A DNA stretch of 64,000 bases from Octopus vulgaris (taxonomy: Eukaryota): assembly GCA_951406725.2 (NCBI GenBank), contig OX597817.1, forward strand, positions 134,292,001 to 134,356,000, written 5' to 3'. The translations under genes and the position numbers were made by a program. Shown here piece by piece: positions 23,406 through 29,098 of the stretch. The first letter of the stretch is position 1; the number at the start of each line of letters is the position of its first letter. The notes under the pieces are model-generated. The model was not told the DNA's origin and did not search any database. It worked only from the letters and a program-made list of their open reading frames with translations.

Positions 23406-23763
23406 GAATGAATGTGGATTAACAATAAAATGAATGTGGATTAACTGTTGAACTGGACGGACGTCTATTTGTTTCTCTCCCGAGTCAGTAGCAAGCTACA
23501 CAGCTTCAAAACTAACTGACCTTAAATATATATATATTTGTAACCACGTGTTTGCCTACAAACCCGTAAGTACGTTTTCATTTAACTACAAATTGTTATA
23601 TACACCTGTTTTTCTTTTAATATCCTCAAACAACCAAATAATCAAAAACTCACACCCTTAAGAGAGAACATTTATATATATATATATACACTTCTTTAAC
23701 TCCCAAGAAAGAATATATATATTTTCAAAAATCAAAAGGAAAACAAACAAAAGAAAAACAAAC

Positions 23764-24992
23764 ATGACTAACTTGCAGGCCTGCAACAGACGAAATTGGT
23801 CTGATAACGAAATTGATGTTTTAATAAACACATGGCTCTCTCTTTCCCAAACAGAAAATCTAAATGTCTTGTGTTTGAATGAGATTGCCGAAAAAACATC
23901 ACAAGTGGTCAACACACGATCCGTCAAACAGATTCGTAGCAAGTTGAAACATATCGAAGTATCTTTCAAACTGATAAGAGGCCATTATGAAAAGCTTCTA
24001 CATATTTTCACAGTTCAAGAACAACAACAGCTAGAAAATCAGCAGCCACAACAACAACAACAACAGAATGAGCCACTCCTGGTTCCTAGCACAATGGCTG
24101 ACCCTGACATCGGTCAGGCACAACAACAACAACAACAGCCACAGCAACAAGAACAACAACAGCCACTCCTCAACTCTAGCTTACTAGACGATTCACTAAA
24201 TGCCAGTATCTTTTCACCGCTCTCACAGCAACCACCACAATTATCATCATCATCATCACCACCGCTGCCACCATCGTCTTCTATCACCAAAAATACCAAC
24301 AGAAAACCAAATAAGAAACCACTGCCCTCTTCCCCCACATCACCACCTCAATACTACTGCAGTAACAAAAACTTAAAGAAACATAGGAAGCAGAATGCGC
24401 CCCCACGGCACAAACAAGAAATCCCCAAATATGCCGCTATTCACTGCGCCAGAGACTCTGCACAAATAGTGACTGCATCTTCACGCATCTACCCGGCACT
24501 AGACGCACTACTGGCCAAGGCCAAAGCACGCATCCCACAATAACATCAACACCACCAAATAGTAAATCGAAATTCAAAACACACACAACTCGGAGTCCCA
24601 AAATCTGCCGGTATTCCCAACGTGAGAGAACATGTCTACTGAGTGACTGTCCCTTCACTCATCTTCCAGGGACCCGACGCACAAACGGAAACGGGGCCTC
24701 AAGCCAACACACAAACCTGAATAACAATAAAAATAGAAACACACCATGCTGCAGTAATGCTGGTCCAGTCTTTTCAGGAAGACACAAAAACAACAACAAC
24801 AAAAGTGGAAACTACAACCCTATCCAACAGTGCAACCACACCTCCAGCCAAAAACTGCTCCCTAAGCAGGAAAATTCTTTTTTAGCCATGGTGAACATGG
24901 CAAAAGAGATACACAAAAACATTCTAGCCATCACTCAACACCATCCTATGCTATTACCCCAGTGCACCAATTCCCCACATTGCTGCCACTAA
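23764..24992 (+). CDS. LINE ORF1: Myb/SANT-like domain, Q/S/P-rich linker and two CCCH zinc fingers (one -1 frame change at ~24387-24425)
   Basis: Frame 1: RRNWSDNEIDVLINTW..EIAEK..RSVKQIRSKLKHI. Frame 3 is open 24387-24992 and encodes PQICRYSLRQRLCTNSDCIFTHLPGTRR and PKICRYSQRERTCLLSDCPFTHLPGTRR. About 409 aa if joined. Confidence 0.8.
24878..24901 (+). promoter_or_regulatory. Candidate -1 ribosomal frameshift site (T TTT TTA) with adjacent hairpin
   Basis: Heptamer 24878-24884 is in X XXY YYZ phase with ORF1 (tcT TTT TTA). The -1 frame is the ORF2 frame, open from 24866. Hairpin GCCATG-gtgaa-CATGGC at 24885-24901. Confidence 0.6.
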
Positions 24993-27900
24993 CACACACA
25001 AAAAATCCAAGCCCCCTGCAACAGTCAAAACCAGCCACTACACTAACCTCCACATTCCTACTCAATGCACAAGGTGTCAGCCCTTCCATCAATGCACAAA
25101 AATGGAAGGTCCAATTCATTGAAGACTGGGTTGGTAACCATTCACACCACATCCCTTTCTTCATTCTCACTGAGACCCACCTTGACAACTCCCACTTGGA
25201 AGCCGAAGTGAGAGTGAAGAATTTCACAACCATCCGCGCGGATCGTATCGGCAGGAGGAAGGGTGGAACTGCCATTTTCCTGCATGATTCATTTACGGCA
25301 GATGGAAATAGTATATTCTCCAACGGCTACTGTGAATCAGTCACCGTGCACAACAAAGCCAATGATCTGACAGTAATTGGGCTCTATAGGCCGCCCCAAA
25401 CACCCATACTGTGCTTTAAAGAATGCCTCAACAGCATTAAGTGCTTTATTCAACAGTGCCATTCTAGCAACATACTCATGATGGGAGACTTCAATCTACC
25501 CTGTGTTGACTGGACTACAAACTGTTTGAAACCAAGCACTCCCGCCTCAACCGCTGACAAAGAAGCAGCAGAGTCACTTTTCGACTTTACGAATGAGTTT
25601 TTCTTGTCCCAACTTGTCCTTGCACCAACAAGACATCAGAACATTTTGGACCTAGTGTTTAGTAACCACACTAACACTATACATAACGTTACAGTGGAAA
25701 AAACCCTTCTTTCAGACCATGACATGGTTCTCTGTAACATGAAATTCCACCAGCCGAAAGCTAATCCTAGTGACCTTCCTCCAGCCCACCCATTTGACAA
25801 CATGGATCTCCATAAAGCCAACTGGGATGCAATCAGGAACGAGCTATCAAATGTTGACTGGTCCTTTACACATACACACATCTCCACCAACCATAAAACA
25901 TCTTGGCAGATCTTTGTAGACACCGTCACAGACATATGTGCAAAACACTCCCCACCAAGACCTGTGAACAAAAAGTGCAGAATCCCCCAAAACAGAAAAA
26001 CCATTATCAGAAAAATAAAAAGAACAAACAAAAAAATTAACAAACTAAAGTACTGCCAACAGCAACACACACATTCGACGGCTATCGCACTGCTTGAATC
26101 CAAAAAATATAACCTCCAACAATGCATGAAGTCCCTCATCAATAACCAAAGATCAGCTGAGGAGAAGTGGGCCATTGAAAAAATCAAACTCAACCCCAAA
26201 GTGTTCTTTTCATTTGCGAGGAAACGCAGGGTCACTGTCTCCACTGTAGGCCCTCTAATTGACGAAACTGGCACTCTCCAAGATAATGCCAAATCCATGG
26301 CCGAGATACTGCAGAAACAATACTGCTCTGTTTTCAGCAATCCTGATATGGCCGATCTGGGCTGTATCAGTGATGTCAACCCCCAACACACTATATCGGA
26401 CATAACGTTTAGTGCCCCTGATGTCTTAGCGGCGATAAACGAAATAAAACACAATTCAGCAGTAGGCCCCGATAGGTTCCCTGCTTGTGTCCTGAAGGTG
26501 TGTCGACACCAACTTGCATCTCCCCTTGCTAATCTGTGGAGAAACTCACTGGATGCTGGCTATATTCCAAAAAACCTTCTGTCCCAGTCTGTTGTCCCAG
26601 TTTTCAAAAAGGGAAACAAGTCCCTTGCAGTGAATTACCGTCCGATCTCACTCACCTCTCATATCATCAAGGTATCTGAGAGGGTGGTGAGATCTCAAAT
26701 AACCCAATTTCTGGAAAGCAACAGACGGCTGATCTCCAACCAACATGGGTTCCGTAATGGAAGGGACTGCCTAACGCAGCTCCTGCATCACTTTGAGGAC
26801 ATTTTGAGAGCTTTGGGAGAGGGCTCCAACACCGATGTCATCTACCTTGATTTCAGTAAGGCCTTCGACAGGGTCGATCACAAGATCCTATTGAAAAAAC
26901 TATCCAACATTGGTGTCTCTGGAAAGTTACTGAAATGGATTAAGTGTTTCCTGACAGACAGATCTCAACATGTTGTAGTTGAAGGGGTAAAATCAAGCCC
27001 AGCCAAAGTCAGTAGTGGCGTTCCGCAAGGCACTGTGCTGGGCCCACTTCTTTTCATCATTTACATTAATGACATTAATGACATCATCAAGCACAGCAAC
27101 ATAAAAATCTTTGCAGATGACTCCAAGCTACAGAAGGTCATAAATGAGGCGAGTGACCGGACATGCCTTCAGTCAGATCTACTGGCTGTTATCCAATGGG
27201 CAGAAAAAAACAATATGCTGCTGAACGAGGATAAATTTGAGCTAATCCACTTTGGAAAAGAGGATGCCCTGAAACTCCCATACTCCCTTCCTTCAGGTGA
27301 AACTCTCGCGGCGTCCAACAACATCAGAGACTTGGGAGTAATTGTGGACAACAACGTAAGCTGGGCCACTCATATAAACACCAAAGTTGACATGGCCCGC
27401 AGAATGTGTTCCTGGATTCTCAGAACTTTCCAGTCGAGAGATATCCACACCATTATCCTTCTCTTCTCCACTTTTGCCCGACCCCACCTTGAATACTGTT
27501 GTCCACTGTGGTCTCCCCACACAATACAAGGTATCATAAAAGTCGAAGCACCTCAAAGGGCAATCACAAAAAAGATAGATGGCATGACAGGCCTCGACTA
27601 TTGGGGTCGACTAGAAAAGCTAAAACTCTATTCTCTCCAACGTCGTCGTGAGCGCTACATCATCTGCATGATGTGGAAAATATTCCATCAGCATTGCCCA
27701 AATGATGTTGGCATCACCTTTAAGGTACATCCAAGGCTTGGGCCCCGTGCCATCCGCCCAAAACAAAAATCGCACTCTCATCTCATAACAACAATACGGC
27801 ACAATTATTTCACCTCAATTGGCCCCGCTCTCTTTAACATTACACCAAAACACATTAAAACAGAAACTGACCCTATAGGGTTCAAGAAGTCTTTGGACAG

Positions 27901-27997
27901 ATTCCTTCAAGAAATCCCGGATAAACCCCCTACACCCGGATATGTCTCTGTAAACAATAACTCTCTACTTGAGTGGGCCATAGTGCCCAAATTCTGA
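24962..27997 (+). CDS. LINE ORF2: apurinic-like endonuclease + reverse transcriptase
   Basis: APE motifs LLNAQG, LTETHL, GLYRPP, MGDFN, LDL, SDH. RT motifs NYRPISL, QHGFR, YLDFSKAFD, GVPQGTVLGP, FADD, DLGV. CR1-like C-terminus RPHLEYC..WSP, LYSLQRRR. The frame is open from 24866 and the annotated start is a GTG. Confidence 0.97.
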   Translation: MHQFPTLLPLTHTKNPSPLQQSKPATTLTSTFLLNAQGVSPSINAQKWKVQFIEDWVGNHSHHIPFFILTETHLDNSHLEAEVRVKNFTTIRADRIGRRKGGTAIFLHDSFTADGNSIFSNGYCESVTVHNKANDLTVIGLYRPPQTPILCFKECLNSIKCFIQQCHSSNILMMGDFNLPCVDWTTNCLKPSTPASTADKEAAESLFDFTNEFFLSQLVLAPTRHQNILDLVFSNHTNTIHNVTVEKTLLSDHDMVLCNMKFHQPKANPSDLPPAHPFDNMDLHKANWDAIRNELSNVDWSFTHTHISTNHKTSWQIFVDTVTDICAKHSPPRPVNKKCRIPQNRKTIIRKIKRTNKKINKLKYCQQQHTHSTAIALLESKKYNLQQCMKSLINNQRSAEEKWAIEKIKLNPKVFFSFARKRRVTVSTVGPLIDETGTLQDNAKSMAEILQKQYCSVFSNPDMADLGCISDVNPQHTISDITFSAPDVLAAINEIKHNSAVGPDRFPACVLKVCRHQLASPLANLWRNSLDAGYIPKNLLSQSVVPVFKKGNKSLAVNYRPISLTSHIIKVSERVVRSQITQFLESNRRLISNQHGFRNGRDCLTQLLHHFEDILRALGEGSNTDVIYLDFSKAFDRVDHKILLKKLSNIGVSGKLLKWIKCFLTDRSQHVVVEGVKSSPAKVSSGVPQGTVLGPLLFIIYINDINDIIKHSNIKIFADDSKLQKVINEASDRTCLQSDLLAVIQWAEKNNMLLNEDKFELIHFGKEDALKLPYSLPSGETLAASNNIRDLGVIVDNNVSWATHINTKVDMARRMCSWILRTFQSRDIHTIILLFSTFARPHLEYCCPLWSPHTIQGIIKVEAPQRAITKKIDGMTGLDYWGRLEKLKLYSLQRRRERYIICMMWKIFHQHCPNDVGITFKVHPRLGPRAIRPKQKSHSHLITTIRHNYFTSIGPALFNITPKHIKTETDPIGFKKSLDRFLQEIPDKPPTPGYVSVNNNSLLEWAIVPKF

Positions 27998-28087
27998 CTT
28001 GAAAGACTTCACCAGGTGGTGCTATTAAGTTAGACATGGCCTGGGCCAATAATGGCCGAAACCTATCAAAGTATCAAAGTATCAAAG

Positions 28088-29098
<1,011 letters not shown>

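Follow-up and report, generated by a model that had tools for sequence, protein, structure and literature searches.

A conserved slippery heptamer at the ORF1/ORF2 overlap of octopus CR1-group LINEs points to a predicted frameshift fusion carrying Myb/SANT-like and CCCH domains

A CR1-group LINE of Octopus vulgaris probably makes its ORF2 product by programmed -1 ribosomal frameshifting, as an ORF1-ORF2 fusion. This reading comes from comparative sequence analysis and centers on the heptamer U_UUU_UUA, which is in phase with ORF1 where the two reading frames begin to overlap and recurs there in the relatives of the element. The element was analyzed in a 64,000-nt stretch of contig OX597817.1 (assembly GCA_951406725.2, positions 134,292,001 to 134,356,000), referred to here as the window. 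Its family, designated family A, inserts into (TA)n and has an ORF1 in which a putative Myb/SANT-like domain precedes two CCCH fingers.

RESULTS

A young, high-copy LINE family

The features of the copy in the window are as follows.

23434 to 28088, plus strand: full-length copy of the CR1-group LINE, family A, about 4.65 kb (delimited by the convergence of the copies' 5' ends and by the ends of the 3' tails)
23434 to 23763, plus strand: 5' UTR
23764 to 24992, plus strand: ORF1, 409 aa when intact, split in the window copy by the loss of one base
23788 to 23982, plus strand: Myb/SANT-like (trihelix-type) domain, residues 9 to 73 (Pfam PF13837; three-helix model)
24012 to 24350, plus strand: low-complexity linker rich in Gln, Pro, and Ser (sequence)
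24400 to 24404, plus strand: C5 run, C6 in most copies, which splits ORF1 in the window copy (other copies and short-read contigs)
24432 to 24506, plus strand: CCCH finger 1 (C-x8-C-x4-C-x3-H) with LPGTRR (sequence; PF14608)
24606 to 24680, plus strand: CCCH finger 2 with LPGTRR, an internal duplicate of finger 1 (sequence)
24866 to 24992, plus strand: ORF1/ORF2 overlap of about 125 nt, encoding a predicted amphipathic helix and tail in the ORF1 frame and a linker to the endonuclease in the -1 frame
24866 to 27997, plus strand: ORF2 frame, 1,043 codons open, APE endonuclease and reverse transcriptase (RT)
24876 to 24909, plus strand: hairpin with the heptamer inside it, confined to family A (intact copy: -16.6 kcal/mol, z -3.0)
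24878 to 24884, plus strand: slippery heptamer U_UUU_UUA in the ORF1 phase, 12 nt past the last ORF2-frame stop (TAA, 24863 to 24865)
27998 to 28063, plus strand: 3' UTR with stem-loops, in part common to family C
28064 to 28088, plus strand: 3' tail of three 8-nt repeats (ATCAAAGT), followed by the target (AT)n

Long (TA)n arrays flank the LINE on both sides, and 17 nt of its 5' end are present twice, the second piece being at 23407 to 23423. Pfam matches in ORF2 were PF14529 (E 6e-14), PF03372, and PF00078 (E 1.8e-29), giving the order APE endonuclease and then RT that defines a CR1-group LINE (Jockey superfamily); the first strand of the endonuclease lies near 25055. The CR1 assignment itself rests on the motifs YLDFSKAFD, GVPQG.VLGP, and LEYC...W.P, which we take to be typical of that clade. 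An RT tree built by a quick method, which retained 109 of 184 rows and contained no named reference elements, recovered a 42-row clade with an SH-aLRT of 100. The nearest ORF2 relatives, P0002 and P0015 (48% and 43% identity), are members of clusters whose names come from the comb jellies Bolinopsis and Pleurobrachia, and P0015 is a gene model that joins a PHD-CCCH region to ORF2. Three further families of the clade are present in the same genome: family B (L141 to L154 and L161), with PHD, three CCCH fingers, and an (AAATG)n tail; family C (L155 to L160, L164 to L167, and L169), with a (TCTAAGTTTTA)-like tail; and family D (L162, L163, L168, and L170).

Searches of the 2.8-Gb assembly found at least 150 copies of family A, and every one of the 150 matches scored against the 97-aa finger region was 100% identical. 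Across 55 copies, divergence from an intact one was 0.19% substitutions per base. Copies truncated at the 5' end were present, and all 20 3' ends inspected carried (ATCAAAGT)1-3, that is, short tandem repeats with no poly(A). Family A is a young, recently active, high-copy LINE.

Several observations were made alongside these. A run of about 150 A residues at 28845 to 28997, inside the downstream microsatellite, is either an insertion tail or an assembly artifact. Viral contigs yielded no relative of the element, nor did a first metagenome scan that used a single endonuclease as the query. Contigs filed as bacterial or archaeal genomes contained 80 animal-type LINE loci (L171 to L250), which indicates eukaryotic contamination of these metagenome-assembled genomes. 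In one public run, X3, a contig had a loose end at 23606 that resembles a template-switch adaptor. Depth in the same run fell to near zero past an A-rich tract with AATAAA at about 26013 to 26036; this drop could reflect internal priming or early polyadenylation yielding an ORF1-only RNA.

A continuous ORF1 interrupted in the window copy

The first-pass annotation, made from the window alone, had described a 259-aa ORF and a 201-codon -1 frame at 24387 to 24992, and had proposed that a joined protein of about 409 aa was broken near 24387 to 24425, probably by a 1-nt deletion or a read error in a C run. Both frames are present as described, the first running from an ATG at 23764 to a stop at 24543, and the proposal was borne out by the other genomic copies. 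Of 29 such copies, 27 carried an additional C, and 17 had an uninterrupted 409-aa ORF1 with the Myb/SANT-like domain and the twin CCCH fingers in one frame; the remaining lengths were 408 aa (2 copies), 373 aa (7 copies), 426 aa (1 copy), and 259 aa (2 copies). Short-read contigs from all 8 public runs also kept the C, which was present at full depth in 4 of 4 runs, and in 4 of 4 further runs the contigs matched the intact copy with zero indels. With the intact copy as the reference, the C at 24400 was missing from 3 of 55 copies, the window copy among them, about as frequently as slips occurred elsewhere in C5 runs (6 of 192) and A6 runs (5 of 270). Because the other copies are continuous and the rate of loss is like that of other runs, the break is a homopolymer loss in the window copy, either a true mutation or an assembly error; programmed recoding at 24387 to 24425 was thereby ruled out.

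A conserved slippery heptamer at the start of the overlap

The heptamer U_UUU_UUA lies 480 nt downstream of the break, at the start of the overlap, where ORF1 reads UCU UUU UUA; this probable frameshift site falls within the interval of the first-pass annotation, which did not mention it. The ORF2 frame is -1 relative to ORF1, and its first Met is codon 205 (25478), past most of the endonuclease. At all eight junctions first compared within the clade (families A to D and L061 to L064), ORF2 was in the -1 frame and U_UUU_UUA stood in the ORF1 phase, 3 to 27 nt past the last ORF2-frame stop. L146 and L162 were used to represent families B and D because L141 has a -1 stop in the overlap and L168, of family D, has an indel.

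The frequency expected by chance was calculated exactly, with the codon usage of each element and with the ORF1 amino acids fixed. L162 was left out of the family count as a near-duplicate that is 90% like L155. A canonical heptamer was observed in the overlap in 7 of 7 families, compared with 0.5 expected, giving a nominal P of 6e-10, which is only indicative, because the elements are related and such P values overstate their independence; endonuclease identity among the seven families was 30 to 60%. The Phe-Leu pair at the heptamer was invariant in 7 of 7 aligned ORF1s, and an amphipathic helix, predicted from the residue pattern, was encoded right behind the shift site in the same seven.

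The comparison was extended to a wider set of 164 loci, 55 of which passed a completeness filter. The complete loci comprised 32 with -1 overlaps, 3 with +1 overlaps, 6 with long single frames, and 14 with other arrangements. With L063 added, 27 of 33 -1 overlaps contained a canonical heptamer in phase (7.8 expected), and beyond the first eight junctions the count was 19 of 25 (7.2 expected); off-phase heptamers numbered 2 and 5. Of the 6 overlaps without a canonical heptamer, 3 had G_GAA_AAC and 1 had U_UUU_UUG. One locus, L172, had A_AAA_AAC instead of U_UUU_UUA, though the endonuclease tree places it within the close clade. In family A, a relaxed heptamer, G_GAA_AAU, also occurs in the ORF1 phase at 24870 to 24876, directly 5' of U_UUU_UUA.

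The hairpin enclosing the heptamer in family A was not kept in relatives, and an alternative family A stem begins about 5 nt 3' of the heptamer (z -2.4). Folding across 31 sites revealed no conserved 3' stimulator, the mean z of -0.55 not differing significantly from that of a segment 150 nt further on (P 0.42). Pairing of the sequence behind the heptamer with the 3' end of the same element was rejected for the clade, since only 1 of 6 elements beat shuffled controls; that element was family A, which has a self-complementary site able to pair equally well with the ends of other elements.

Alternative routes to ORF2

ORF2 might instead be made separately, by termination-reinitiation or by non-AUG initiation near the ORF1 stop, with Phe-Leu merely marking the start of a helix. 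The lack of a conserved stimulator at the 31 sites would suit this route, as would the short distance that separates the ORF1 stop from the first strand of the endonuclease in most relatives and the AUG found within the overlap in 3 of the 8 junctions (L155, L162, and L063), the other 5 having no AUG ahead of the endonuclease. There are also precedents in the available text of two articles, one favoring AUG-independent ORF2 initiation for human L1 (PMC5009743) and the other showing that SART1 uses stop-start coupling (PMC3708506). Three features, however, would be left unexplained: the fixed codons (a third-position U, then UUU and UUA), seen in every family against half a family expected; the 456 codons from heptamer to ORF1 stop, upstream of the endonuclease, with zero -1 stops (15.5 expected) and 39 stops in the +1 frame; and the preponderance of -1 overlaps over +1 overlaps by 32:3. 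Separate initiation is accordingly judged unlikely, and frameshifting at the heptamer remains the preferred reading.

The U6 run of the heptamer (24878 to 24883) was shorter by 1 to 3 bases in 26 of 55 family A copies, on many SNP backgrounds, compared with 5 of 270 for A6 runs, 0 of 14 copies of family B, and 1 of 10 copies of family C. As the run lies within a 15-bp hairpin, either slippage of the RT or errors of long-read sequencing would account for the shortening. The shortening could be taken to favor transcriptional slippage, in which the polymerase adds or drops U so that some mRNAs have ORF1 fused to ORF2, and a frame-fusing -2 form was indeed present in 4 of the 55 copies. The commonest variant, though, was -1 (19 copies), which leaves the frames unfused, and no +1 copies were seen; families B and C lack the hotspot despite having the same heptamer; and 8 of 8 short-read contig sets showed U6, contigs being prone to lose the less frequent variants. 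The heptamer's terminal A, together with the non-U heptamers found in wider relatives, agrees with slippage by the ribosome, not by a polymerase, and transcriptional slippage is thus considered highly improbable.

Only slightly less probable than this is a role of the motif as a splice acceptor (polypyrimidine tract plus AG), with ORF2 translated from a spliced mRNA. An AG does stand directly behind the heptamer in 4 of the 8 junctions (A, B, L061, and L063) and 2 nt on in L062, but it is not adjacent in L064, L155, and L162, and its phase is off in L062. Moreover, contigs of 8 runs bridge the site unspliced, no joint among those listed ends there, and the A-rich heptamers of wider relatives cannot serve as acceptors. 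Among these routes, -1 frameshifting by the ribosome remains the one preferred.

Domains of ORF1 and their history

The ORF1 protein (ORF1p) has the predicted order Myb/SANT-like domain, Gln/Pro/Ser linker, two CCCH fingers, and C-terminal helix. In a Pfam scan of the 409-aa protein at E values up to 0.1, PF13837 and PF14608 alone were matched; RRM, CCHC, Tnp22, PHD, and esterase domains were not found, a very remote RRM being possible, and the sequence outside the domains is of low complexity.

The Myb/SANT-like pattern noted earlier at the N terminus corresponds to a match of residues 9 to 73 to PF13837 (Myb_DNA-bind_4), with an E value of 1.7e-5 and a score of 25.6 bits, below the curated cutoff of 27; the family C domain scored 23.9 bits against the same cutoff. 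A phmmer search among 1.84 billion representatives returned seven proteins, three of them close short relatives and four long, and linked the domain to multirepeat PF13837 proteins at an E value of 3.6e-7. Two of the seven were scanned: P0122, a close relative, scored 31.7 bits, above the cutoff, and P0124, a long match, contained six PF13837 repeats. AlphaFold, run with five sequences, modeled three helices at residues 14 to 28, 35 to 48, and 54 to 89, the third being long (pLDDT 67.5, pTM 0.38), but the matches of a fold search were not specific (best Z 5.5; homeodomain-type three-helix matches at Z 4.2 to 5.3). Foldseek with a single-sequence model of residues 1 to 90 gave no match, and a PDB sequence search with a small profile returned GCN4 coiled coils only. 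On this evidence, residues 9 to 73 very probably form a Myb/SANT-like domain.

The twin finger repeats reported in the second frame are real, each with its LPGTRR, but the spacing between the first two cysteines is x8, not x7 as had been given. The match of this frame to zf-CCCH_2 (PF14608) was weak (E 0.0028). The ligands C, C, C, and H were nonetheless invariant in 7 of 7 aligned ORF1s, as were G, T, and R columns, and both family A fingers aligned with the last finger of the array and with the HLxGTxR motif of six relatives. CCCH fingers as a class bind RNA. A homolog search with the whole ORF1 found nothing at an E value of 0.001 among 2,166 candidates, the ESM Atlas gave no usable ORF1 match, and a search with the ORF1 alignment found one protein, a CCCH fragment that shares the NSFLL..LENMK junction.

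A PHD-type finger leading into an array of three CCCH fingers was found in L061, L062, L064, and P0015, which are relatives via ORF2, and in family B; the PHD call was Pfam-significant in L061 only, was weak in family B, and was based on the cysteine pattern in the rest. Families C and D, from the same genome as family A, have the Myb-like domain with four CCCH fingers and a partial fifth. Within the clade, CCCH fingers are the ancestral module of ORF1, in most cases preceded by a PHD finger. An 18-row endonuclease tree, built by a quick method, placed Myb families A, C, and D on one branch (SH-aLRT 99) among PHD-bearing rows, and because of this nesting, a single replacement of PHD by Myb in one subclade is most likely.

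Whether such an ORF1 is unusual, as the first-pass annotation had suggested, depends on which part is considered. CCCH fingers are common in the clade, but the combined architecture is absent from the accessible text of a survey of ORF1 types in 448 Jockey-superfamily elements (PMC4120745), in which the terms CCCH, Myb, and SANT do not occur. No report of a Myb-CCCH ORF1 was found in the accessible literature, although Repbase/Dfam or older papers may list PHD-CCCH ORF1s; as far as that literature shows, the predicted Myb-CCCH architecture is new.

Insertion into TA repeats

Of 20 family A 3' junctions, 19 lay directly in (TA)4 or longer, and the 20th lay in an interrupted TA repeat. At the 5' side, 42 of 56 junctions had (TA)4 within 25 nt, with 5'-truncated copies counted, and the background of (TA)4 within the window was 5.8%. 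Family A inserts into (TA)n. The strict (TA)4 test was passed by 2 of 9 family C (Myb) 3' junctions, some having been missed by the tail pattern, and by 2 of 10 family B (PHD) 3' junctions; by eye, 8 of the 9 family C junctions begin in TA or TATG repeats. The pooled Fisher P was 0.007, with family A as its driver.

The first-pass annotation had proposed that the protein could bridge element RNA through the CCCH fingers and target DNA through the Myb domain, a hypothetical role with which the insertion of family A into (TA)n agrees. That the Myb-like domain directs insertion into TA repeats is suggested only tentatively by these patterns. It is somewhat more probable that the domain is not the target chooser, the preference for (TA)n coming from the endonuclease or from pairing between tail and target, and that the domain serves to bind chromatin, partner proteins, or the promoter of the element itself. 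Binding to proteins is also a property of SANT-type domains, family C shows a weak TA preference in the strict test although it carries this domain too, and the family A tail ends in GU and adjoins AT repeats. On the other side, families A and C start, by eye, in TA-type repeats more often than does PHD family B, the predicted fusion would put the Myb-like domain on the endonuclease, and targeting guided by an ORF1p has a precedent, in the available text, in TRE5-A (PMC5633606).

DISCUSSION

Under the proposed frameshift, most ribosomes would finish ORF1 and yield the 409-aa protein, ending in a helix that possibly serves oligomerization. A small share would slip one base back at U_UUU_UUA, after Phe-Leu 375-376, and produce a protein with the order Myb-CCCH-linker-endonuclease-RT, about 1,410 aa long, that lacks the C-terminal helix. 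In this fusion, the element RNA would be bound by the CCCH fingers, and the Myb-like domain, in place of the ancestral PHD finger, would be linked physically to the endonuclease, which it may direct toward TA repeats. A broader generalization is doubtful: that a large share of CR1-group LINEs rely on -1 frameshifting to make endonuclease-RT as a Gag-Pol-like fusion, and that the fusion of this lineage changed integration site when the Myb-like domain replaced PHD, the fusion carrying (TA)n recognition together with the CCCH fingers and the unshifted ORF1p keeping the oligomerization helix.

The available text of PMC3708506 and PMC5009743 describes ORF2 translation in two-ORF LINEs as unclear, and the latter, a review, discusses it as reinitiation. 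This question becomes testable now that a young, intact, high-copy family is seen to have a conserved slippery site of the retroviral type. If the proposal is true, ORF2p is a fusion with ORF1 domains, which would change the view of RNP stoichiometry, cis-preference, and ORF1 domain shuffling. The exchange of PHD for Myb in a (TA)n-inserting family would likewise amount to a natural domain-swap experiment on LINE targeting. No slippery -1 site in CR1-group LINEs was found in the accessible literature, although Repbase/Dfam and older papers (on mosquito T1/Q, chicken and turtle CR1, and Dictyostelium DRE) may note overlaps and suggest frameshifting.

Comparison with known systems

In its two ORFs, APE and RT domains, short tandem-repeat tail, and 5' truncations, the element resembles the CR1-clade LINEs described in the available text of PMC4120745. 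The scheme of comparison for ORF1 is that of types I to V, introduced by Khazina and Weichenrieder and extended by Metcalfe and Casane in 2014 (PMC4120745). As far as that text describes these types, the N-terminal PHD of the relatives recalls type III and CR1 subgroup 2 (type V), whereas family A ORF1p, set against types I to IV, has no detected RRM, CCHC knuckle, esterase, or L1-type trimer domain. The ORF1 domain shares with Myb_DNA-bind_4/trihelix proteins the pattern W..E...LI..W...EIA....R...QI..KLK and the three helices with a long third. Unlike multirepeat trihelix host proteins such as P0124, it is single, diverged, below the cutoff, and located in a LINE ORF1, and its DNA binding is putative.

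Dictyostelium TRE5-A, according to the available text of PMC5633606, is like family A an APE-type LINE with overlapping ORFs, and its ORF1p, which is implicated in targeting, interacts with TFIIIB close to tRNA genes and is said to have no homology to other ORF1 proteins. The target of family A differs in being (TA)n, and the candidate targeting module is a predicted DNA-binding fold.

With retroviral gag-pol of the HIV-1 type, family A shares an identical heptamer, U_UUU_UUA being given as the HIV shift site in the available text of PMC5009743, as well as its zero-frame phase and its position at the start of a -1 overlap. In both, a gene for an RNA-binding protein overlaps a polymerase gene, and the zero-frame product has its own tail. 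Family A differs from gag-pol in being a non-LTR element without a protease; neither a stem-loop nor a pseudoknot was found to be conserved at the spacing usual for such sites, and its frameshift is a prediction. Other LINEs that must make little ORF2p from a two-ORF RNA include those bearing 2A sequences, and for Paramecium non-LTR elements a +1 shift or readthrough has been suggested (available text of PMC5405496). As described in the available text of the respective articles, AUG-independent reinitiation is the favored route to ORF2 of human L1 (PMC5009743), and UAAUG coupling serves that of SART1 (PMC3708506); in contrast to both, the long -1 overlap and slippery heptamer of family A point to a fused protein.
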